A stretch of DNA of 64,000 bases from Bacteroidales bacterium (lineage in GTDB: Bacteria > Bacteroidota > Bacteroidia > Bacteroidales > VadinHA17): assembly GCA_035527935.1 (NCBI GenBank), contig DATKZO010000048.1:58690-122689 (forward strand), read 5' to 3'. Of this stretch, positions 1,031 to 9,420 are shown one piece after another. Below the pieces are notes generated by a model that ran no database searches, was not told the DNA's origin, and was given only the letters and a program-made list of their open reading frames with translations. The position numbers and the translations under genes are program-made. Position 1 is the stretch's first letter. Each line of letters begins with the position of its first letter.

Positions 1031-1053
1031 TAAAAAAGGTGCAGATCACCTGC
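1031..1053 (-). terminator. Weak candidate rho-independent terminator between the DUF1080 gene and the aminotransferase gene
   Basis: On the minus strand, AGGTG-atctg-CACCT (5-bp stem) is followed by TTTTTTATT. The stem is short, so this is tentative. Confidence 0.25.
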
Positions 1054-1169: not shown

Positions 1170-1901
1170 TTACAGCTCTTTTATCTTTATGTTCCGGAAC
1201 CAAACATCATCACCGTGATCCTGAAGTCCTATGTAACCCTCTTGTGCAGGGTTCACAAATTCAGGCCAATCCCTGAATTTCGAATCTGCACACATCTCCT
1301 TCCATGCATCGGTCCAAAGATGATACTCAAGTATATTTTTGCCATTCTGCCAGTGTACTACTGTGCCCCTGTAAACCATTATTTTCACCTGGTTCCACTC
1401 TCCGGCAGGTTTTGTGTTCTGCGGAACTGCAGGTATCAGGTCATATAATGCGCCCGCCTTACGGTTACCATCTTTGCCTAAATTGGCATCAGGATGCTTT
1501 TCATTATCAAGAATTTGCATTTCCGGAGCAGACATATAGATCGGTTTGCCCTCAAGCTCCTGTCCCAGATAGAATATACCACTGTTACCTCCTTCAGAAA
1601 TTTTCCATTCCAGGGAAAGTTCAAAATTGCTGTATCTGTTTATTGTGATAATGTCACCTCCCCCGCCACCGGCTTCACCCATACCGGAACCGACACAGTG
1701 CAACGTACCATCTACAACCTCCCAGCCTCTCTCGGGAAAGGATTCTTTCATGTATCCACGGAAATTATCAGTTGAGGTACCGTCGAAAAGAACCACCCAG
1801 CCCTCATCAGTTGCTGCTTTTATACCCTTTTTTTTCGATCCGCATGAACCTGCAATAATTATCAACAGGATTAAAGATATCAGATAACTTATAATTCTCA
1901 T
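1170..1901 (-). CDS. DUF1080 (3-keto-disaccharide hydrolase family) lipoprotein
   Basis: 243 aa. It has a lipobox-like LLIIIAGSCGS. The body follows the DUF1080/PF06439 pattern (GWVVLFDGTS, GGNSGIFY, GLQDHGDDVWFRNIKIKEL). Confidence 0.85.
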   Translation of the reverse strand: MRIISYLISLILLIIIAGSCGSKKKGIKAATDEGWVVLFDGTSTDNFRGYMKESFPERGWEVVDGTLHCVGSGMGEAGGGGGDIITINRYSNFELSLEWKISEGGNSGIFYLGQELEGKPIYMSAPEMQILDNEKHPDANLGKDGNRKAGALYDLIPAVPQNTKPAGEWNQVKIMVYRGTVVHWQNGKNILEYHLWTDAWKEMCADSKFRDWPEFVNPAQEGYIGLQDHGDDVWFRNIKIKEL

Positions 1902-1925
1902 ATTTCTTTTTGTTTTAAATTAATA

Positions 1926-3428
1926 TCAATTAGTGATCTGCCTTGGCATCTCCGGTAGTGTCCAGCCATCCCTGTATGTATGCTTGATCATTTCATTGGC
2001 AAATGCCTTAGCGTTCATAGGGTCAGTATACTTGGTATGGAAAGATGGGTGCCCGTCGGTAATACTGAAAACATCTTCGGTCACGATCTTAATTTCATCA
2101 CTGTCGGAGATATTGGTAAACTCCATCCTGGCACCATCCCATTCCAGTTCTTTATTCAATCCCTGAAGACGAACGGCCAGCACTCCCATTACGACCATTT
2201 CATTAAATGGTCCTGCTTCAGCAAAATCAGATTTTGAAGGAATCCTGCTATCAGGACTCTCTTTACAGGCACGTGCCCAATCTAACTGATGTTCTTCATC
2301 CTTAACTCTTCTTTCAGACTTTGGCACATCCGGAACTCTTCCTGACATCAGCCAGGGGTTTCTTCCATAACATCCACATATAAGCTTGTCCCTGGTTCCA
2401 TGGAATATAACACCTCCATCCCAGTCACCGATCTCTTTTCCTTCAGGCCATCCTTCAGGTTTCATAGGCTTAAGTCCACCATCGTACCAGGTAACATCTA
2501 CTTCAGGAAGATTAATTTTATAATCCTTGCGTTTTTCTCTGGCCGGATATATCAGTTTTACTATTTCAGCATTTGGAGCACAATCGGTTAATAGCAGGGT
2601 ACTGCTCCCCTGAGCTTTAATTGGATAGGTTAACTTCAGGCTGGTAAAAACAGGGTGAAGTATATGACAGGCCATATCCCCGAGAGCACCTGTTCCAAAA
2701 TCCCACCAGCCTCTCCAGTTCCACGGGTGATAAATACTATTATAGGGACGTGGTTTCGTCGGGCCGATAAACAGATCCCATTTAAGCGTTTCCGGAACAG
2801 CCATTTCTTCTGTCGGGCGATTAAGTCCCTGTGGCCATATTGGCCTGTTTGTCAATGCCTCCACCTTTGTAATTTCGCCAATTTCCCCGTTTTGTATCCA
2901 TTCAATAACCTTGTTTACACCTTCCCCTGAAGCTCCCCAGTTACCCATCTGGGTGGCGACTTTATGCTTTGCAGCAAGATTTGTAAGGAGTCTTGATTCA
3001 TATACCGTGTGGGTCAATGGTTTTTCAACGTACACATGCTTACCCATATTAATTGCATTGGCAGCGGTAATGGCATGGGTATGGTCGGCAGTTGCAATAA
3101 CCACAGCATCTATTGATTTTTCCATTTCGTCATACATCTTCCTGAAATCCCAGTATTTCTTTGCTTTCGGGTAATTATCAAACTTTGCCCCCACATAGCC
3201 CCAGTCGACATCACAAACTGCAACAATATTTTCGGTTCCTGACAGAGCTCTTAGATCGGTATTTCCCATACCTCCAATACCGATACCTGCTATATTCAGC
3301 TTATCGCTTGGCGGAGTATATCCCATGCCACTTATAACGGAACTGGGAACTATAGACAATCCTGCAGTTACTGCTGCAGTTTTACTTACAAATGATCTTC
3401 TGGAAATCTTGGCCGGCTTTTCTTTCAT
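1926..3428 (-). CDS. Gfo/Idh/MocA family oxidoreductase, Tat-exported
   Basis: 500 aa. It has an ISRRSFVSKTAAVTAGL twin-arginine signal, a Rossmann motif NIAGIGIGGMG and YVEKPL (the EKP motif of the family). Confidence 0.85.
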   Translation of the reverse strand: MKEKPAKISRRSFVSKTAAVTAGLSIVPSSVISGMGYTPPSDKLNIAGIGIGGMGNTDLRALSGTENIVAVCDVDWGYVGAKFDNYPKAKKYWDFRKMYDEMEKSIDAVVIATADHTHAITAANAINMGKHVYVEKPLTHTVYESRLLTNLAAKHKVATQMGNWGASGEGVNKVIEWIQNGEIGEITKVEALTNRPIWPQGLNRPTEEMAVPETLKWDLFIGPTKPRPYNSIYHPWNWRGWWDFGTGALGDMACHILHPVFTSLKLTYPIKAQGSSTLLLTDCAPNAEIVKLIYPAREKRKDYKINLPEVDVTWYDGGLKPMKPEGWPEGKEIGDWDGGVIFHGTRDKLICGCYGRNPWLMSGRVPDVPKSERRVKDEEHQLDWARACKESPDSRIPSKSDFAEAGPFNEMVVMGVLAVRLQGLNKELEWDGARMEFTNISDSDEIKIVTEDVFSITDGHPSFHTKYTDPMNAKAFANEMIKHTYRDGWTLPEMPRQITN

Positions 3429-3561
3429 TATCTGGTGATTTATATTTATTTAACCTTTAAAATTAACAATTTCTATCTAATCAAAAGTTTATTTAATTAA
3501 AAAAATCCGGTTTTAATAAGTTGCAGAAAAAGGATAAATTGCAGTTAAATAAAAATCAGAT

Positions 3562-4038
3562 ATGCAACATAAGCACATCTCACTTGATGACAGGCCGGAA
3601 AAACGTATGGTAAGAGTAATAATGGTGATCTTCGGGCTTCTCTGTCTTTTTACATCAGGCTGGTGGTCTGTATACCTTCTTAAACTTCCTGATAACAATA
3701 ATAATATGTTCTGGTTGGCAACGCTTTTTCTTTTTCTGTTCGGATTATACCAGATCTATTCCGGGTTAGGATTAGCAACAAGGTATATGATATTCGAAGA
3801 AAAAGTATTTATAGTCAGACAGAACAGCCTTTTAACCCCAAAGAAATTTTACTCGGACAACATTAAAACTGTTGAGATCGGGTCTCATGATATTTCATTA
3901 CTTTTCAATGATGGCAGAAGGTACAGGATCAAACTCGGACTTAAATATCCTGACCTTGGTGAAAACATTAAAGAGAACATTATTGAGTTTGCAACGGGGC
4001 ATAAAATCGAGATCTTTTACAAACACCAGCCATTATGA
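3562..4038 (+). CDS. Small membrane protein (2 TM helices plus soluble C-terminal domain), function unknown
   Basis: 158 aa. Hydrophobic helices are VIMVIFGLLCLFTSGWW and FWLATLFLFLFGLYQIY. Its stop overlaps the next start (ATGA at 4035-4038), suggesting translational coupling. Confidence 0.6.
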   Translation: MQHKHISLDDRPEKRMVRVIMVIFGLLCLFTSGWWSVYLLKLPDNNNNMFWLATLFLFLFGLYQIYSGLGLATRYMIFEEKVFIVRQNSLLTPKKFYSDNIKTVEIGSHDISLLFNDGRRYRIKLGLKYPDLGENIKENIIEFATGHKIEIFYKHQPL

Positions 4039-5180
4039 GACTTAAAATGGGAATTATAGGTGGAGGACACGGTTCATTTATAGGGCCGGTCCACCTTATG
4101 GCAGCCAGGATGGATTCTATGATTGAACTGGTATCGGGAGCCTTCAGCAGTGATCCTGACAACTCAAAAAAAAGTGGAGAGGCGTTGGGGCTTGACGCAC
4201 AGAGGGTCTATTCCGGCTGGGAGGATATGATCCGAAAGGAGAGTCAGCTGCCGGATAAGGATCGTCCTGATTTTATTTGCATTGTGACACCAAATTTCCT
4301 TCACTTCAAACAGGCACTTGATGCCCTGAATGCAGGCTTCCATGTTGTCTGTGATAAACCTCTTTGTATTACAGCAGATGAGGCATTAATACTCCAGGAA
4401 GCAGTACAACGGAACAAAAGGATATTCTGTCTTACCCATAATTATACCGGCTATCCCATGATAAAAAAGGCAAAAGAACTGATCTGCAGCGGAGAACTTG
4501 GTACAATAAGGAAGGTGGTCACTGAATATCTGCAGGGATGGTTATCAGATAAGGAGGAAGTAAAGGGAAACAAGCAGGCCGAATGGAGAGCAGATCCTTC
4601 CAGGGCCGGTAATGCAGGGTGCATGGCCGACATAGGCACGCATGCTTTTCAACTTTCTGAATACCTCACCGGTAAACTTGTTGATAGACTTTTTTCACAG
4701 CTGAACAGCTATGTGGACGGGAGACTACTCGATGATGATGGAAATGTTATTCTCAATTTCGAAGATGGGATTCGGGGTACTCTAATAGCAAGCCAGATCG
4801 CTCTGGGTGAAGAAAATAACCTGAAGATAAGAGTGTACGGAACAAAAGGAAGCGTTACCTGGGAACAAATGTGCCCAAATGATCTTCTGGTAAGGTGGAA
4901 GGATGCCCCATATCAGGTATACAGGACTGCTACGAATTTCAATCATATTGGCAACTATGCTGGTAAACACTCAAGAATTCCTGCGGGACACCCTGAAGGA
5001 TTCATCGAAGCATTTGCAAACCTCTACCGCAACTTTGCGCTAAGGGTGATAGCCCGGAAAGAAGGCAGGGAATCTGATGAAATGTTCGACTTCCCTGGTA
5101 TTGAGGATGGTGTAAGAGGGATGAAATTCCTTGAAGCTGTAGTTAGATCTTCAAAGGAAGAGAGGTGGATTACCCTATAG
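4035..5180 (+). CDS. Gfo/Idh/MocA family oxidoreductase, cytoplasmic (no signal peptide)
   Basis: 381 aa. It starts with a Rossmann motif MGIIGGGHGSFIG and has a VCDKPL motif and the C-terminal alpha/beta domain typical of the family. Confidence 0.85.
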   Translation: MRLKMGIIGGGHGSFIGPVHLMAARMDSMIELVSGAFSSDPDNSKKSGEALGLDAQRVYSGWEDMIRKESQLPDKDRPDFICIVTPNFLHFKQALDALNAGFHVVCDKPLCITADEALILQEAVQRNKRIFCLTHNYTGYPMIKKAKELICSGELGTIRKVVTEYLQGWLSDKEEVKGNKQAEWRADPSRAGNAGCMADIGTHAFQLSEYLTGKLVDRLFSQLNSYVDGRLLDDDGNVILNFEDGIRGTLIASQIALGEENNLKIRVYGTKGSVTWEQMCPNDLLVRWKDAPYQVYRTATNFNHIGNYAGKHSRIPAGHPEGFIEAFANLYRNFALRVIARKEGRESDEMFDFPGIEDGVRGMKFLEAVVRSSKEERWITL

Positions 5181-5197
5181 GTGCAACTATTGATTTA

Positions 5198-5322
5198 CGA
5201 ATATCGATTAGCAATTTTATTTATGATCTGTTTTTAATCGGTATATAATCTTTTCAAAATCCCCGATATAAGCTTCCTGGAATACGCATCTTCTAAAATC
5301 AACATTCGCTAATCGATATTCG
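5198..5322. repeat. 15-bp perfect inverted repeat (CGAATATCGATTAGC / GCTAATCGATATTCG) with 95-bp AT-rich spacer between convergent genes
   Basis: The arms at 5198-5212 and 5308-5322 are exact reverse complements, read directly from the sequence. Confidence 0.8.
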
Positions 5323-5332
5323 ATATACCATT

Positions 5333-6172
5333 TCAGAGTATCTGGTTTAATAAATATTCCCTGCTGATTTTAATACTTTCAAGTGGGGTATGTGACCGGC
5401 AATCGTCCTGCTCAATAAAGAAGTACTTCATACCAGAAATCGCCGCGCTGTAGAATATGGGATTAAAATCAATTGATCCTTCACCCAGAGTAGCATCCTT
5501 ACCCTCATCTGACAGATCCTTGATATGCCACATCTCAAATCTTCCGGGATATTTCCGGAAGAAGTTCAACGGATCCTGGCCTGCTGCTACTATCCATGCC
5601 AGGTCGAGTTGGTAGGTAACAAGTTCCGGGTCAGATTCTCCTGCAAGGATATCAAAGGGGATAATACCATCGATCGCAATGAATTCTACCTGGTGATTAT
5701 GAAAGCCTAATCTGATACCTGCAGATCTGCATTTCTCACCCGCGCCGTTCATAAAGCCGGCAGCCTCCTTAAATCCATCCGGGGAGGAGGTCCAACTTCC
5801 TGGTAATGACGGGATAACTACATATTTCAGACCAGCATCAACGGAAGCCCCGACTACCTCATCAACATTGCCAGGATTGAGATCGTTATGGCTGCTGATA
5901 AGCTCCATTCCCCTATCCTCAATCAGCCCACGGAATTTTGACGGTTTCATATTATAAAATTTCCCGTCGGCATAACTGGCTGCTTCAAGCCAGTTAAAAC
6001 CAAGCTCAGCAATCCTGTCAAGCGTACCTTCCGGATCTGCTTTCATCTCATTTCTGACTGTATAGAGTATCAAACCGGTTTTAGGATCGGCCGGCATGCA
6101 TGATGAAATTGGTACAAATGATAACGCGGCAGTAGCGGTAACTGAATTCCTGATGAAGTCTCTTCTGTTCAT
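5333..6172 (-). CDS. Sugar phosphate isomerase/epimerase (xylose isomerase-like TIM barrel), Tat-exported
   Basis: 279 aa. It has a MNRRDFIRNSVTATAALSF signal and family-like motifs LGFNWLEAA, GFHNH and WHIKD. Confidence 0.8.
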   Translation of the reverse strand: MNRRDFIRNSVTATAALSFVPISSCMPADPKTGLILYTVRNEMKADPEGTLDRIAELGFNWLEAASYADGKFYNMKPSKFRGLIEDRGMELISSHNDLNPGNVDEVVGASVDAGLKYVVIPSLPGSWTSSPDGFKEAAGFMNGAGEKCRSAGIRLGFHNHQVEFIAIDGIIPFDILAGESDPELVTYQLDLAWIVAAGQDPLNFFRKYPGRFEMWHIKDLSDEGKDATLGEGSIDFNPIFYSAAISGMKYFFIEQDDCRSHTPLESIKISREYLLNQIL

Positions 6173-6184
6173 GGCGTAATATTT

Positions 6185-7783
6185 TTATACAATTTTTTCA
6201 TTTTCACGGTCCCACTGTACCCTTCTTCCTTCCCTGAAAGCCATGGTTCCCATATGTGCCGTTATGGCTTCCTCGAAAGCCTGGTCAATATTGCAGGAGG
6301 GAGTACCTCCATCCCTTATGCATGATAACCATTCCCTAATGTGAAGATGGGATGTGTCAACACGCTTTCCTCCCCGGTAGGTATATAACAATCCTCTGCC
6401 GGCAAAATATTGCTCCGTGGCCGAGGTAATTGCATCCACACTCTTTTTACCCGGAGTAAACGAGAGGATTGGAAGGGATGTATCAATTATACCATCTTTT
6501 ATCTTCTCTTTGTATTTTGTTGATTGCGGATCAGCATAGATCATCATCGAATTTCCAATCTCCATGCTGGCATCATGTCCCATAATTACTCTTCCCCTTG
6601 ATTTGCTACTGGCAAGTGTGGCACTATACATCATTGTCAGGTTTTGCTTCTCAAATTCGAACACCGTATGAAGAACATCAGGTACTGTGCGTCCATCCTT
6701 GAAAAAATATATACCACCCGATGACACGGCACTATCGGGAATACCAAAACCAAGTATCTGGTTCATTGCATCATACTCGTGAGTAAGAAGGTCGCCCGAA
6801 AGACCTGTACTGTAGTCCCACCAGCATCGCCACCTGAAGAATCGCTCCAGACTGAAATCATGCCAGGGAGCCTGACCGATAAATTGTTCCCAGTCAATAG
6901 TCTCAGGACCGGCTTCCGGGTGTATATCGTAAACCCAGGCACCATTTGGGTCGTTCCTGTTGGTAGTTACCTCTATCAGGTTCACCGGTCCAAGGACATT
7001 ATTGAGTATAGCTTCCTTAGCTTTAATGTAGGCCTCAGTCTGTCGATTCTGATGCCCAAGCTGGAAGACAATTCCGGATTCCCTGATGGCGTTTCTTACA
7101 TCATAAGTTTCACTCACCGACCAACTGAGTGGTTTTTCACAATAAACATGTTTACCGGCCCGTGCAGCTTCGATTGTTATTGGAGCATGCCAGTGGTCAG
7201 GTGTTGCGATTATTATCGCATCAACAAAATCAGCAGCTACGAGCTCCCTGTAATTTTTAAATATAACAGGCTTATCTGCCAGAGTAGCCCCCTCTCCTTC
7301 CCTGCTCCTGTTTGCGCCGGTTTCCTGTGCTTTTTTTGCATACACCGTAAAAATGTCGCAAACTGCAGTTATTTCAATATTAAGATCCTCCTGCTCAATA
7401 AATTCCTGGTGCCTCTTGTCCCTGCTGTTCTCTATCTCTGCATTCTTCAGTTTCTCAACATCACCGGGATGAAGAAAGCCAGCTGCTTTTGCCAGCTGAG
7501 GTCCCCTGATCCCGAATCCTACAAGGCCAATTCGGATCTTCGTATTTGATCCTTTTTTTTCAGGCTCATCAGGCTGATGATCTGGCATATTAAGTTCCTG
7601 CAGGATACTGCTTTTTAATTGCCTCTCATATTTCCGTTTCCGATAATAACCATAGGCAAATGCACCAAGCACAGGAACAGTTGCCAGTCCTTTGACTATA
7701 TCGCGACGGCTCATATTATGATTATCCGGATCTTCAGGTTGATTGAGATCCTGATTTTGCCCTTTATGATCTTTATCATTCAT
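6185..7783 (-). CDS. Gfo/Idh/MocA family oxidoreductase with RR-containing N-terminal signal/anchor
   Basis: 532 aa. It has MSRRDIVKGLATVPVLGAFAYG, a Rossmann motif IGLVGFGIRG and a YCEKPL motif. An alternative start at Met24 (7714) is possible. Confidence 0.85.
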   Translation of the reverse strand: MNDKDHKGQNQDLNQPEDPDNHNMSRRDIVKGLATVPVLGAFAYGYYRKRKYERQLKSSILQELNMPDHQPDEPEKKGSNTKIRIGLVGFGIRGPQLAKAAGFLHPGDVEKLKNAEIENSRDKRHQEFIEQEDLNIEITAVCDIFTVYAKKAQETGANRSREGEGATLADKPVIFKNYRELVAADFVDAIIIATPDHWHAPITIEAARAGKHVYCEKPLSWSVSETYDVRNAIRESGIVFQLGHQNRQTEAYIKAKEAILNNVLGPVNLIEVTTNRNDPNGAWVYDIHPEAGPETIDWEQFIGQAPWHDFSLERFFRWRCWWDYSTGLSGDLLTHEYDAMNQILGFGIPDSAVSSGGIYFFKDGRTVPDVLHTVFEFEKQNLTMMYSATLASSKSRGRVIMGHDASMEIGNSMMIYADPQSTKYKEKIKDGIIDTSLPILSFTPGKKSVDAITSATEQYFAGRGLLYTYRGGKRVDTSHLHIREWLSCIRDGGTPSCNIDQAFEEAITAHMGTMAFREGRRVQWDRENEKIV

Positions 7784-7795
7784 GATTTGTGATTG

Positions 7796-8338
7796 TCATT
7801 TTCTGAATATGAATCTGTCTATCCCTATTATCCTGCCTGTAGGAAACACCAGCAGAACAGCTAGCGCAAATAGTTCAATTAGATTCTTGTTAACCCATAA
7901 ATAGCTGCCTTCGGAAGGCACCGAGAATTTAAATCCGATCATTGGCGGATGTGAAAGATAATAGAAACCAAGAAGTATGATCCCCGCTATCACACTTATC
8001 CTGGTGAAGCAGCCCAGTAACAGGCCCAGACCTATTACGACCAGTCCCCATACATTCAGGAAATCGACAGCTTTGAGGAGATCCGGATTGGAAGCTAGCG
8101 AGTTAATAAAAACTGAAAACAGACCTCTTGAATCCAGAAGAAATCCTGCCGATGACCAGTCAGGATTAGCCAGTTTTGAAACTCCCTCATACAGGAAGTG
8201 CCATCCGATGAGTATCCTTAGTATTACAAGGATCGTCAGCTGTGTTAATGAGTAGTCTTTTTGAAGATATTGAGACATAGAGAAGTGTTTTTCATTATCG
8301 GTCAGATGCAAATTTATTACTTCTCTCCAATTGGTCAA
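7796..8338 (-). CDS. DoxX family membrane protein
   Basis: 180 aa with about 4 TM helices. LRILIGWHFLYEGVSKL is a typical DoxX N-terminal motif. It lies 12 nt upstream of the 6185-7783 oxidoreductase gene on the same strand. Confidence 0.75.
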   Translation of the reverse strand: MTNWREVINLHLTDNEKHFSMSQYLQKDYSLTQLTILVILRILIGWHFLYEGVSKLANPDWSSAGFLLDSRGLFSVFINSLASNPDLLKAVDFLNVWGLVVIGLGLLLGCFTRISVIAGIILLGFYYLSHPPMIGFKFSVPSEGSYLWVNKNLIELFALAVLLVFPTGRIIGIDRFIFRK

Positions 8339-8406: not shown

Positions 8407-9420
8407 GTGGAAGCCAGGTACTATAAAAAGGAAGGAAACTCAGTTGTCAGATGCATGCTGTGCCCTCATCAGTGTTCCATCGAACCTGATCAAAAAGGAA
8501 TTTGCGGCGTCAGGTTAAATAAAGGGGGAAAGCTGGTAACGCAGGTGTACGGTGTGATATCCGGATTTGGACTTGATCCTGTCGAAAAAAAACCACTGTA
8601 TCACTTCTTTCCCGGTTATAATATATTATCCGCCGGATCCTATGGTTGTAATTTTTCATGTTTTTTTTGCCAGAACCATTCAATTTCACAGGTAAACGAT
8701 CTCGGGGTAATCCCAAAGGGTAAGGTGGCAACTCCTGATCAACTGATTTCTCAGGCAAGGCAAGCGGTAAATAATGTAGGCGTAGCATTTACCTATAATG
8801 AACCATCTGTATGGTTTGAATTTATGTATGATACTGCTGTATTAGCCAATAGAAAAAAATTGCGTACAGCGATGGTAACTAACGGGTATATTAACGCTGA
8901 CCCACTAAAAGAGCTACTTAAAGTAATTGATGCCTTTAACATTGACCTGAAATCCTTCGATGACTCATTTTACCGGCAGCATAGTAAGGCAACGCTCAAA
9001 CCGGTACTAAGGAGTATCCTTGACATCCATAGATCAGGGCGGCATTTAGAGCTCACGATGCTCATCATTCCAACACTGAACGACCAGATCGCAATGTTTC
9101 GTGATTGTGTTAAATGGATTGCAGAAAATACAGGAAGGGACACGGTCCTTCATCTCAGCCGCTATTTCCCGAGATACAAATCAAGTATCCCGGCCACAGC
9201 GAAAGACAAACTGGATGAGCTATTTAACATTGCACTGGAGTATTTGAATTTTGTATACATGGGAAATATCGATGGTGAAACGGGGCAAAATACAGTCTGC
9301 CCTGATTGCGCCAGTCTCATTACTAAAAGAGTTGGCTACCAGGTAATTAACATGAATTCTGATGATAAGGGGAATTGCAGTAGCTGCGGGAGGAAGATAT
9401 ATAATTATTTTACTTTTTGA
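8407..9420 (+). CDS. amrS: AmmeMemoRadiSam system radical SAM enzyme
   Basis: 337 aa with a GTG start. It has a CNFSCFFCQN (CxxxCxxC) radical-SAM cluster motif. N-terminal cysteines (RCMLCPHQC...GICGVR) and C-terminal cysteines (CPDC...CSSCG) are arranged as in this family. Confidence 0.8.
   Translation: MEARYYKKEGNSVVRCMLCPHQCSIEPDQKGICGVRLNKGGKLVTQVYGVISGFGLDPVEKKPLYHFFPGYNILSAGSYGCNFSCFFCQNHSISQVNDLGVIPKGKVATPDQLISQARQAVNNVGVAFTYNEPSVWFEFMYDTAVLANRKKLRTAMVTNGYINADPLKELLKVIDAFNIDLKSFDDSFYRQHSKATLKPVLRSILDIHRSGRHLELTMLIIPTLNDQIAMFRDCVKWIAENTGRDTVLHLSRYFPRYKSSIPATAKDKLDELFNIALEYLNFVYMGNIDGETGQNTVCPDCASLITKRVGYQVINMNSDDKGNCSSCGRKIYNYFTF

Follow-up and report, generated by a model that had tools for sequence, protein, structure and literature searches.

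The window analyzed here, a stretch of 64,000 nucleotides, contains at positions 1170–8316 what is, by its sequence, an oxidative glycoside-cleavage cluster of the BT2156–BT2159/AL1–AL4 type, whose new element is a gene pair encoding a DoxX membrane protein and a 532-residue Gfo/Idh/MocA protein (hereafter Gfo532). With a probability of roughly 0.55, we read the whole as an oxidative 3-keto-glycoside-cleavage system with its own respiratory outlet, in which a Tat-inserted, NAD-bound and probably FMN-linked Gfo532 would sit on DoxX and deliver electrons to menaquinone. The core pathway itself is not new, having been published (Liu 2021; Nasseri 2024) and being covered by NCBIfam models.

Table 1 Features of the cluster, in window coordinates
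Positions	Strand	Feature	Evidence
1037..1053	-	Terminator-like hairpin and T-run	Past the DUF1080 stop (1170), ahead of the following ATG (979)
1170..1901	-	DUF1080 lipoprotein, BT2157/AL2 counterpart	PF06439 E 3e-52; PDB 8TDA/8TDE E 1.6e-77
1926..3428	-	Predicted Tat-exported glycoside 3-dehydrogenase (G3DH) with tightly bound NAD, BT2158/AL3 equivalog, 500 aa	NCBIfam NF058561; PDB 8TDF
3562..4038	+	Two-TM protein of 158 aa, matching no family	ATGA overlap with next gene; only weak, sub-threshold Pfam matches
4035..5180	+	Cytoplasmic Gfo/Idh/MocA oxidoreductase, 381 aa, no signal peptide	Pfam; PDB 3V5N E 8e-104
5333..6172	-	Xylose-isomerase-like TIM barrel, AL1/BT1 homologue, Tat, possibly lipoprotein	PF01261; PDB 8TCD/8TCS/8TCT E ~3e-39
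6185..7783	-	Gfo532, DoxX-partnered, Tat-inserted Gfo/Idh/MocA dehydrogenase (predicted), 532 aa	Pfam; nearest PDB 8TDH/8TDF E 2.5e-24
6416..6436	-	DAITSAT (D450–T456), predicted ApbE flavinylation site, FMN phosphoester on T456	Motif conservation
7631..7711	-	Tat motif, low-hydrophobicity helix and C-flanking basic patch (SRRDIVK + GLATVPVLGAFAYGYY + RKRK)	Kept in 78 homologues
7796..8278	-	DoxX, 160 aa, four TM segments, both termini cytoplasmic; proposed quinone-reducing membrane subunit	PF07681
8309..8316	-	Bacteroidetes -7 promoter-like box, TAAATTTG	Upstream of DoxX ATG; position only, motif not enriched in window

The core glycoside-cleavage cluster

The 500-residue dehydrogenase scores 856.9 bits against the BT_2158 model (cutoff 750), matching 487 of 487 profile positions, and aligns with PDB 8TDF at about 70% identity (E 5e-218). 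It begins with the twin-arginine signal KISRRSFVSKTAAV, in which SRRSFV is followed by 25 uncharged residues in a row, and its R195, W198, D251, H255 and Y354 align with R192, W195, D248, H252 and Y349 of AL3, while Trp164 occupies the position of AL3 Gln161. Equivalog score, signal, and catalytic and sugar-binding residues assign this enzyme to the BT_2158 family. The gene for the DUF1080 protein lies 24 nt downstream; domain, structural similarity, a lipoprotein signal closing with IIAGSC and the adjacency to the 3-dehydrogenase gene place its product with the lyase-hydratases BT2157 and AL2, whose 3-keto-α-glycoside 1,2-lyase and 3-keto-2-hydroxyglucal hydratase functions (Nasseri 2024, bioRxiv 10.1101/2024.03.25.586180) it is predicted to share.

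The TIM-barrel protein starts with the Tat sequence MNRRDFIRNSV, followed by a lipobox-like PISSC, and its H158, H160, D190, W193 and H216 align with the metal and substrate residues of AL1, E254 or D256 being the acidic residue. It groups with AL1/BT1 (BT2156) and would act as a 3-keto-β-glycoside 1,2-lyase. The 381-residue oxidoreductase, for which the NCBIfam profile search gave no match to BT_2159 (NF058563) and as best match levoglucosan dehydrogenase at 122 bits (cutoff 650), is likely a cytoplasmic 3-keto-sugar reductase with a BT2159-like role, not an ortholog; in relatives, the cytoplasmic partner likewise comes from subfamilies other than BT_2159, for example the PRK11579 type. The stop codon of the 158-residue two-TM protein, an open reading frame (ORF) that, among the relatives, just the two closest (L001 and L025) share, overlaps the ATG of this oxidoreductase as ATGA at 4035–4038. 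The hairpin downstream of the DUF1080 gene is the probable left boundary of the cluster.

All four features that the initial annotation had read directly from the DNA were recovered where it had placed them, namely the RR-type starts on three proteins (G3DH, Gfo532 and the TIM barrel), the DUF1080 lipoprotein, the DoxX gene ending 12 nt upstream of the Gfo532 start (7796 versus 7783, same strand) and the translationally coupled two-TM/oxidoreductase pair. Its proposal of a periplasmic 3-keto-glycoside-type pathway is borne out by the NCBIfam equivalog, the similarities to PDB 8TDF, 8TDA and 8TCD and the retained catalytic and metal residues, and its expectation that the oxidoreductases group with glycoside 3-dehydrogenases holds for the BT_2158 equivalog and for Gfo532, whose nearest structures are 8TDH and 8TDF, followed by DgpA. 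Among its three supposedly signal-bearing Gfo/Idh/MocA enzymes, G3DH and Gfo532 do carry signals, whereas the third (4035–5180) opens directly with the Rossmann fold. The suggested Dgp-type C-glycoside deglycosylation was not sustained: the TIM barrel matches AL1/BT1, and the PDB comparison returned no match to DgpB/C or CarB/C at E <= 0.01. Of the 53 window ORFs with 150 or more residues, only 5 passed a TATFind-like filter that asks for RR-x-hydrophobic-hydrophobic and 13 or more uncharged residues; three of these lie within the cluster. Another Tat-type start, the fourth, occurs on the truncated ORF 1–979.

The published clusters BT2156–BT2160 and AL1–AL5 (Liu 2021, PMC8121099; Nasseri 2024) share with the window, at equivalog or PDB level, the Tat-exported NAD-bound glycoside 3-dehydrogenase, the DUF1080 lipoprotein, the TIM-barrel lyase and a cytoplasmic Gfo/Idh/MocA enzyme. 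The window cluster differs from them in the Tat (and lipobox-like) signal of its TIM barrel, where theirs is Sec, in a cytoplasmic enzyme that is not a BT2159 ortholog and is coupled to the small two-TM gene, in that no SusR or DUF6377 regulator was found within it, and in the additional DoxX–Gfo532 pair. The B. thetaiotaomicron and Alistipes clusters function without such a pair adjoining, which counts against DoxX as the electron outlet.

The DoxX–Gfo532 pair and its conservation

DoxX scores 29.8 bits against PF07681 (cutoff 23.6), and its hydropathy fits four TM segments. The start at ATG 8278 (160 residues) is more likely than that at TTG 8338 (180 residues), because gene callers choose this ATG and the -7 box lies upstream of it. 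Over its full length, the protein is weakly similar to DoxD of thiosulfate:quinone oxidoreductase (TQO), but a TQO DoxD equivalog is ruled out by a score of 21.2 bits where 300 are required (NF041179) and by the missing DoxA partner; no DoxA-like gene was found, the partner of DoxX being Gfo532. Conservation analysis of DoxX gave no conserved His pair. In Gfo532, K217, Q245, R276, D331 and H335 are conserved. Membership in the BT_2158 family was rejected for this protein (113.8 bits against 750, over residues 174–357 only), which belongs to a related but distinct family; its C-terminal half is not alignable to BT2158-type enzymes, hhalign stopping at residue 374.

The adjacency of DoxX, on which the initial annotation had built its idea of an electron outlet, is kept in related genomes. 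DoxX is encoded immediately upstream of Gfo532, in the same orientation, at all 75 species-level genome loci with upstream DNA and at all 50 testable metagenome loci (125/125 together), across Bacteroidales, Cytophagales and Acidobacteriota, as compared with 0 of 13 distant Gfo proteins (<40% identity). The 12-nt spacer of the window becomes an 8-nt gene overlap in locus L073.

Of 36 loci with complete flanks, 19 have a BT2158-type gene within 6–8 kb of the pair, and at 27 of 59 loci such a gene follows directly downstream; many metagenome loci are arranged alike. DoxX–Gfo532–(TIM)–G3DH–DUF1080 is a common operon order. We consider it unlikely that the pair is instead an autonomous membrane dehydrogenase for another periplasmic substrate (sugar, polyol, uronate or aromatic polyol), situated in sugar-utilization regions and not serving the 3-keto pathway, since roughly every second locus has an adjoining BT2158-type gene, frequently within one operon, where less than 1% would be expected by chance, and since the nearest characterized relatives of Gfo532 are glycoside 3-dehydrogenases with the catalytic D, H and K kept. 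Such autonomy would agree with the 13 of 36 fully flanked loci in which G3DH, DUF1080 and TIM genes are all missing nearby, with the pair in L082 that adjoins galM and Leloir genes, with the sister DoxX fusions, which have unrelated catalytic domains and are found in pectin-type PULs, and with the aromatic triol that is the substrate of BtdLS (see Discussion).

Membrane topology of Gfo532

The N-terminus of Gfo532 (NMSRRDIVKGLATV) carries a motif, RR-x-[ILV]-[ILV]-K, that is present in 78 of 78 homologues, and the hydrophobic stretch that follows is only 16 residues long, weakly hydrophobic and succeeded by a basic patch. This patch is a documented signature of Tat-dependent TM segments (Tooke 2017, PMC5449189). 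By its S/T-R-R-x-F-L-K-like motif, moderate hydrophobicity and basic C-flank, the segment is classified as a Tat signal anchor, and we propose that it docks to DoxX. This helix recurs inside natural DoxX fusion proteins, as the fifth TM segment (TM5) of 39 representatives, and is therefore oriented N-in/C-out. The fusions have exactly the 4+1 TM layout of the Tat-dependent proteins described by Tooke 2017 (PMC5449189), with which Gfo532 shares the RR before the last TM segment, its low hydrophobicity and the positive charges after it; in the window, however, the Tat helix and the four-TM domain are on separate polypeptides, and that description does not include the DoxX families.

By the positive-inside rule applied to RKRK, the helix could alternatively be an ordinary N-out/C-in anchor holding a cytoplasmic catalytic domain, basic residues being commoner after the helix than before it. 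This is very improbable: the complete Tat consensus is invariant, the helix has low hydrophobicity and the C-flanking charge is typical of Tat-dependent TM segments (PMC5449189), in the fusions the helix succeeds a four-TM domain with cytoplasmic C-terminus and precedes an extracytosolic flavinylation motif, and TatC adjoins the cluster in four loci. The signals are consequently taken as Tat-type, not as anchors of cytoplasm-facing enzymes, given the invariant RR consensus, the short helix, its basic C-flank and its TM5 position in the fusions.

Predicted flavinylation of Gfo532

Residues 450–456 of Gfo532 conform to a universal family motif, D-x-x-[TSA]-[ST]-[AP]-[T/S], whose D and T are shared by all 79 sequences; it occurs in 59 of 60 metagenome relatives (Ser as acceptor in three), and the acceptor position is T or S throughout about 140 Gfo532 sequences. 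The Gly of the canonical motif is never found in this family, S or T standing in its place, and the Ala is replaced by Pro in about 25%. Within the 18,393 residues of the window ORFs, DAITSAT is the sole match to D..[ST][GS]A[ST], and it sits in a low-confidence loop of the structural model. The canonical D-x-x-[ST]-G-A-[ST] is found just after TM5 in 31 of 39 DoxX fusions (S, A, P and V variants occur), and variants of the Gfo532 type are also present at this canonical position.

No ApbE is encoded in the 64-kb window, and the gene is absent from most loci; it accompanies the pair at 7 loci of the 80 in the genome set and at 9 of the 66 in the metagenome set. ApbE–DoxX–Gfo532 operons are found in L073, L052, L089, L093, L094, L096 and L103, the genes of L073 overlapping with ApbE translationally coupled and ApbE lying directly upstream in six further loci. 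It is also near the pair in L091, L092 and L097, after the cluster in the Dysgonomonas-type L030, L032, L034, L039, L044 and L110, and adjacent to the DoxX fusions of L084/L085 and L086. The link to DoxX would most likely run through FMN covalently bound to Gfo532, a route that the initial annotation had not proposed.

The lack of the canonical Gly and the invariant Y, F and R neighbors of the motif, which would fit sugar binding, could also mean that the DAITSAT loop is a substrate lid, and that DoxX is merely an anchoring or assembly partner of a Gfo532 that is a redox-neutral transhydrogenase like BT2158 or glucose-fructose oxidoreductase (GFOR); the characterized periplasmic Gfo/Idh/MocA enzymes are all ping-pong transhydrogenases, and BtdS has a non-catalytic role as well, sequestering a regulator. 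An acceptor restricted to T or S, ApbE coupled in L073 and directly upstream of the pair elsewhere, and canonical motifs with ApbE neighbors on the DoxX fusions make this improbable, and mere anchoring would not call for a four-TM partner that is dedicated and conserved throughout.

Discussion

By its homology with characterized enzymes, the core pathway can be regarded as established; it would begin with oxidation of the C3 hydroxyl of glycosides by the 500-residue enzyme using its tightly bound NAD. The aglycone would then be eliminated from the 3-keto-glycosides by the TIM barrel (β) or the DUF1080 lipoprotein (α), the elimination product hydrated to 3-keto-glucose by the DUF1080 protein, and the imported keto-sugar reduced by the cytoplasmic Gfo/Idh/MocA enzyme. 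This mechanism and its 'missing component' problem are both treated in the literature cited above. C3 oxidation followed by elimination is a logic common to DgpA/DgpBC, CarABC and the FAD-dependent glucoside 3-dehydrogenase/LacABC/ThuAB systems; among solved structures, DgpA ranks second in closeness to Gfo532, if still distant, and LacABC-type enzymes are linked to the respiratory chain, but the window cluster has neither their GMC flavoprotein nor a cytochrome c subunit.

DoxX may reduce quinone by analogy to TQO, to BtdLS and to dehydrogenase fusions, such as P0355, which joins DoxX with an FMN-dependent dehydrogenase domain. The BtdL subunit of BtdLS may be COG0673/Gfo-like. The TQO of Acidianus ambivalens, DoxDA, likewise combines a four-TM DoxD/DoxX-type protein with a single-TM, periplasm-facing subunit and has quinone as acceptor, whereas the window has no DoxA, DoxX being paired with an NAD-dependent dehydrogenase whose presumed substrate is a sugar, not thiosulfate. 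Aromatoleum anaerobium has a likewise membrane-bound, two-subunit enzyme in the hydroxyhydroquinone dehydrogenase BtdLS (PMC10084136), the small subunit being a four-TM protein of the DoxX/D family, but here the substrate is aromatic and the host a denitrifying betaproteobacterium, and flavinylation is not reported for BtdLS.

The GFOR of Zymomonas and the aldose-aldose oxidoreductase of Caulobacter share with Gfo532 the Tat-exported Gfo/Idh/MocA fold with bound nicotinamide cofactor. These enzymes are soluble, redox-neutral and ping-pong; in contrast, Gfo532 has a retained membrane helix, an obligatory DoxX partner and a flavinylation-type motif. Proteins flavinylated by ApbE (NqrC, RnfG, PplA, urocanate and fumarate reductases, DUF2271, DUF3570) resemble it in a motif of the D-x-x-[S/T]-G-A-[S/T] type on a segment that is, or for Gfo532 would be, extracytosolic, in apbE belonging to the operon of some lineages and in a proposed role of relaying electrons between a membrane pool and the catalytic domain. 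Gfo532 differs in having S/T for G, a Rossmann-type NAD enzyme as host and DoxX as membrane partner, and surveys of ApbE-flavinylated extracytosolic proteins make no mention of such a host or partner.

The extracytosolic enzymes known to be flavinylated by ApbE are mostly reductases supplied by the quinol pool, and 3-keto-glucose needs reduction somewhere, so that electrons could be imagined to flow from menaquinol through DoxX to FMN and bound NAD, with Gfo532 reducing periplasmic 3-keto-sugars back to glucose. The flow in this direction is quite improbable, being energetically uphill from menaquinol (about -74 mV) to NAD (-320 mV) or ketone/alcohol couples (about -200 mV), and the reduction step is already covered by the BT2158-type enzyme and the cytoplasmic reductase.

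In the oxidative scheme that we prefer, where the Gfo532 substrate, its covalent flavin and the electron transfer to quinone are inferred, comparative genomics suggests that DoxX and Gfo532 form one membrane complex. Gfo532 would be inserted by Tat, its N-terminal helix staying in the membrane packed on DoxX and its catalytic domain being periplasmic. A sugar or glycoside hydroxyl would be oxidized by the Lys/Asp/His machinery of sugar 3-dehydrogenases with reduction of the bound NAD, and the hydride would then pass to the FMN that ApbE is predicted to attach covalently to Thr456, from which electrons may reach menaquinone at DoxX and finally fumarate reductase. This net oxidation would supply a 3-keto-sugar oxidant to the otherwise redox-neutral and easily stalled BT2158-type enzyme, and the DoxX–Gfo532 pair looks like the missing electrical connection of the pathway to the respiratory quinone pool.

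Gene cluster and core pathway

Seven genes lie within positions 1170–8338, and the features on which the initial annotation had been built, namely a DUF1080 lipoprotein, RR-type protein starts, a DoxX gene just upstream of that for Gfo532 (the 532-aa Gfo/Idh/MocA protein) and an ATGA coupling, were all located there; of its three supposedly signal-bearing Gfo/Idh/MocA enzymes, the 500-aa and 532-aa proteins do carry an RR motif, but the 381-aa protein is signal-less. A Tat heuristic was passed by five of the 53 large open reading frames of the window, three of these five belonging to the cluster. The ATG at 8278 is the most likely start of DoxX, giving a protein of 160 aa. Between the cluster and a truncated PLP enzyme with a Tat signal lies a terminator-like hairpin, and the other flank consists of unrelated genes, among them those for a radical SAM enzyme and aminotransferase IV. 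A sigma-70 promoter scan of the window returned 19 sites against 18.3 expected, which is chance level, and because the TAnnTTTG box is not enriched across the window, it was assessed by position alone.

Features of the gene cluster and its surroundings
Feature	Position	Strand	Remarks
Class-V PLP enzyme, truncated	1–979	−	runs off window start; Tat signal (MMTRRELLKS)
Terminator-like hairpin	1037–1053		
DUF1080 lipoprotein	1170–1901	−	
500-aa Gfo/Idh/MocA protein	1926–3428	−	Tat motif SRRSFV
158-aa 2-TM protein	3562–4038	+	stop overlaps next gene's start as ATGA
381-aa Gfo/Idh/MocA protein	4035–5180	+	without signal
Xylose-isomerase-like TIM barrel	5333–6172	−	Tat motif NRRDFI
Gfo532, 532-aa Gfo/Idh/MocA protein	6185–7783	−	Tat motif SRRDIVK
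DAITSAT, Gfo532 residues 450–456	6416–6436	−	predicted flavinylation site
Gfo532 peptide			SVDAITSATEQYFAGR; predicted FMN acceptor T456
DoxX	7796–8278	−	12 nt upstream of Gfo532 gene
AmmeMemoRadiSam-system radical SAM gene	8407–9420	+	divergent to DoxX
Fourth Gfo/Idh/MocA protein, 508 aa	22646–24172	−	Tat motif, then lipobox-like VNSC

Several neighbors stand apart from the pathway considered below. The best NCBIfam match of the truncated PLP enzyme is the periplasmic, Tat-exported PvdN, a weak one (99 bits, cutoff 650), and the gene is not kept beside the cluster in relatives. The 158-aa protein belongs to no family (weak, sub-threshold EbsA-like match only), and its gene, translationally coupled to that of the cytoplasmic Gfo/Idh/MocA enzyme, occurs in the closest relatives only (L001 and L025). 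The AmmeMemoRadiSam gene is syntenic in close relatives (L001, L004, L025, and L029) and shows no obvious functional connection with the cluster. The 508-aa Gfo/Idh/MocA protein sits among ArnT/ArnC-like glycosyltransferase genes and has neither a flavinylation-type motif nor a DoxX neighbor.

By homology, the core of the cluster encodes the BT/AL oxidation–elimination–hydration pathway of glycoside cleavage, and it belongs to a known system that was characterized recently. With 857 bits, the 500-aa protein clears the cutoff of 750 for the NCBIfam family BT_2158_fam ('glycoside 3-dehydrogenase'), and it is ~70% identical to PDB 8TDF/8TDH; the DUF1080 protein matches 8TDA/8TDE (E 1.6e-77) and the TIM barrel 8TCD/8TCS/8TCT (E ~3e-39), the latter retaining H158, H160, D190, W193, and H216 as metal and substrate residues. 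All these structures originate from the work by which the pathway was defined (Nasseri 2024, bioRxiv 10.1101/2024.03.25.586180). There, many α- and β-glycosides, including glucosinolates and acarbose, are oxidized at C3 by a Tat-exported enzyme that binds NAD tightly, the aglycone is eliminated by the TIM-barrel protein from β anomers and by the DUF1080 protein from α anomers, the elimination product is hydrated by the DUF1080 protein, and in vitro the pathway can dispense with a cytosolic Gfo/Idh/MocA enzyme. The 381-aa cytoplasmic enzyme of the window is not an ortholog of BT2159 by NCBIfam comparison, and the cytoplasmic Gfo enzymes of relatives belong to yet other subfamilies. The Dgp-type C-glycoside logic mentioned initially was not borne out and was rejected, the TIM barrel matching AL1/BT1 and giving no DgpB/C or CarB/C match at E ≤ 0.01.

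Two details of the core enzymes may be recorded. Residue 164 of the 500-aa enzyme is Trp where AL3, its Alistipes counterpart, has the NAD-contacting Gln161, a Gln found at that position in ~90% of the sampled relatives. Residues 1–26 of the TIM-barrel lyase hold both a Tat motif and a lipobox-like PISSC, which suggests a Tat-exported lipoprotein, whereas AL1 is reported to have a Sec signal.

Conserved pairing of DoxX and Gfo532

Relatives of Gfo532 were taken from one genome per GTDB species (80 loci, 50–74% identity, mostly from Bacteroidales, plus Cytophagales and one Vicinamibacteria MAG), and 80 metagenome loci were added to the comparison. The DoxX adjacency noticed initially proved to be conserved: wherever upstream DNA was available, a DoxX gene lay directly upstream on the same strand (75/75 genome loci and 50/50 metagenome loci), as against none of 13 Gfo proteins less than 40% identical to Gfo532. 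Gfo532 retains the EKP lysine K217 together with Q245, R276, D331, and H335, the counterparts of AL3 catalytic and binding residues, and its C-terminal half does not align with the BT2158 family, the family-versus-family hhalign alignment ending at residue 374. An AlphaFold2 model (pLDDT 70.8, with low confidence in the motif loop and the N-terminus) found only generic Gfo/Idh/MocA matches in a Foldseek search of the PDB. A 390-aa DoxX/Gfo532 hybrid (P0347) was not used as a Rosetta stone and was set aside as a probable assembly or gene-call chimera, its join falling at a shared IGFG.

The recurrent gene order is DoxX-Gfo532-(TIM)-G3DH-DUF1080-(TIM), G3DH being the BT2158-type gene. Among the 36 genome loci flanked on either side by 6 kb or more, the BT2158-type gene is present in 19, the DUF1080 gene in 23, and the TIM barrel in 16, and none of the three occurs in 13. 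That the pair constitutes an autonomous dehydrogenase for another substrate is an unlikely reading, though the foremost of the alternatives.

N-terminal helix and topology

The N-terminus of Gfo532 runs from RR-[DE]-x-[LIV]-K through GLATVPVLGAFAYGYY to RKRK; every homologue has the RR, the hydrophobic stretch spans just 16 residues, and the basic patch always comes after it. A twin arginine, a short and weakly hydrophobic segment, and a basic C-flank are the signature of Tat-inserted transmembrane segments (Tooke 2017, PMC5449189), which accounts for a basic flank that would otherwise point to a cytoplasmic domain. With the window DoxX as query, an exhaustive search further revealed, in 39 representatives among the best 150, an internal copy of this helix placed after the DoxX domain and a charged linker and followed by a globular domain (e.g., P0266, QRRELLRDMISLPFIGAFAYAVYRKRKW). 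The charge distribution of DoxX, read from its sequence, fits an N-in/C-in orientation. We infer that the Gfo532 helix is a dedicated N-in/C-out partner of the four-TM DoxX bundle, which would make the catalytic domain periplasmic and membrane-tethered. The contrary reading, a cytoplasm-facing Gfo532 on an N-terminal anchor, draws on the basic flank and is highly improbable; it was rejected in view of the Tat signature and of the helix shared with the DoxX fusions, so that the export signals assumed initially stand.

Flavinylation-type motif and ApbE linkage

In a C-terminal loop, every member of the Gfo532 family carries the motif D-x-x-[TSA]-[ST]-[AP]-[T/S]-E-x-Y-F, resembling the sites at which ApbE covalently attaches FMN, a motif defined here from published ApbE work. 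Its Asp and the acceptor residue are invariant in 79/79 Gfo532 sequences, and it recurs in 59 of 60 relatives from metagenomes, whose identity goes as low as 41% (Ser as acceptor in three); a DAITSAT-type motif appears nowhere else in the 18,393 residues of the window's open reading frames and in none of 32 BT2158-type enzymes. Against a flavin at this site, the canonical Gly never occurs in the family motif, Ala is replaced by Pro in about a quarter of the members, and the loop is modelled at low confidence. Neither bis-His nor CxxCH cofactor sites were found in DoxX or Gfo532, H110 being the one conserved His in DoxX.

The linkage of ApbE to the pair takes several independent forms. In the Vicinamibacteria locus (L073), the ApbE, DoxX, and Gfo532 genes overlap. 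ApbE is directly upstream of DoxX in L052, L089, L093, L094, L096, and L103 and nearby in L091, L092, and L097, and Dysgonomonas-type loci (L030, L032, L034, L039, L044, and L110) have ApbE and TatC after a full cluster ordered cytoplasmic Gfo, DoxX, Gfo532, G3DH, DUF1080, TIM (e.g., L034, 13291–15488). ApbE is not near the pair in most loci, the window included; a location away from the substrate gene is usual for ApbE substrates and is not evidence in favor.

DoxX fusion proteins

An ApbE-type motif follows the internal helix within ~10–20 residues in 31 of the 39 DoxX fusions (chance ~1% per protein), for example as DATTGAT, DAITGAT, or HAITGAT, with natural variants DAMTSAT, DAVTSAT, DSVSGPT, and DSVTGVT, unlike in Gfo532, where no such motif comes right after the helix. 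As their globular domain, P0355 and P0295 carry an FMN-dependent dehydrogenase (PF01070), and other fusions one of ~300 aa that matches nothing in Pfam or the PDB. ApbE directly follows the fusion in L086 and lies two genes downstream in L084/L085; in five sampled fusions, ApbE adjacency was present in two and absent in two, one contig being too short to tell.

Two groups of fusions deserve separate description. Proteins of ~510–545 aa (P0246, P0251, P0260, P0266, P0316, and others; L083, L086, and L087) join DoxX, an internal RR helix, a canonical flavinylation motif, and the conserved ~300-aa domain; they occur in PULs (GH28, SusC/D, and aldo-keto reductase), that of L086 directly upstream of ApbE, and appear to represent a dual Sec-Tat family of flavoproteins that is as yet undescribed. 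P0355/P0394 (L084 and L085, 8001–9758), annotated '4-hydroxymandelate oxidase', join DoxX to a PF01070 α-hydroxy-acid dehydrogenase domain, the downstream ApbE being on the same strand amid sugar-metabolism genes.

Proposed mechanism and implications

In the predicted mechanism, DoxX and Gfo532 would form one membrane complex, in which a hydroxyl group of a sugar or glycoside, most likely that at C3, is oxidized by Gfo532 on bound NAD, hydride passes from the bound NADH to FMN on T456, and electrons proceed from FMN to menaquinone at DoxX; the module would thereby provide the net oxidation and 3-keto-sugar supply that keep the redox-neutral BT2158-type enzyme cycling. Established redox potentials favor electron flow from sugar to menaquinone and on to fumarate, and the reverse reaction, a quinol-driven reduction of 3-keto-sugars by Gfo532, runs against them and appears improbable. 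The comparison lends support to the initial interpretation, with DoxX as a possible electron outlet, and makes it more precise. A quinone as the electron acceptor at DoxX is suggested by analogy, namely by weak full-length similarity of DoxX to TQO DoxD, by the hydroxyhydroquinone dehydrogenase BtdLS, whose membrane subunit is of the DoxX family (PMC10084136), and by the fusion of the window-type DoxX clade to dehydrogenase domains. That DoxX is a mere anchor for a Gfo532 acting as a transhydrogenase is quite unlikely.

The predicted complex would address the question of how the periplasmic NAD enzyme of the pathway is re-oxidized. In vitro, pathway rates were very low until a 3-keto-sugar was supplied as oxidant, and re-oxidation of the bound NADH was the bottleneck, for which a 'missing component' was suspected and cytochromes or small hydride acceptors were considered in vivo (Nasseri 2024); an unidentified co-substrate sugar had been proposed by Liu et al. 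(PMC8121099). The new element is the predicted NAD- and covalent-FMN-containing, DoxX-docked periplasmic dehydrogenase. At a probability of roughly 0.45, we tentatively propose that Gfo532 is the first Gfo/Idh/MocA protein with both a tight nicotinamide and an ApbE-installed covalent FMN, that the DoxX clade (hitherto unrecognized, and including the 4+1-TM fusions as a new dual Sec-Tat family) serves as the subunit coupling Tat-inserted, flavinylated dehydrogenases of the periplasm to quinone, and that the pair, as a sugar:menaquinone oxidoreductase, is the missing component re-oxidizing or priming oxidative glycoside cleavage in Bacteroidota, tying glycan foraging to anaerobic respiration. 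The literature searched, mostly without subscription journals, so that a prior description is possible, does not mention the DoxX-Gfo532 module or join DoxX, ApbE, or flavinylation with Gfo/Idh/MocA proteins or the 3-keto pathway, and DoxX is never named in the flavinylation surveys or the Sec-Tat study (Tooke 2017, PMC5449189).

Present in about half of the clusters of this kind, the conserved membrane module is a concrete, testable candidate for the missing component. If the proposal is true, an NAD-dependent enzyme would have an extracytoplasmic route to the quinone pool, the large and poorly understood DoxX family would gain a defined role, Rossmann-type dehydrogenases would join the known ApbE substrates, dual Sec-Tat membrane proteins would gain new families, and models of redox and energy balance during the use of glycans by Bacteroidota of gut and sediment would change.
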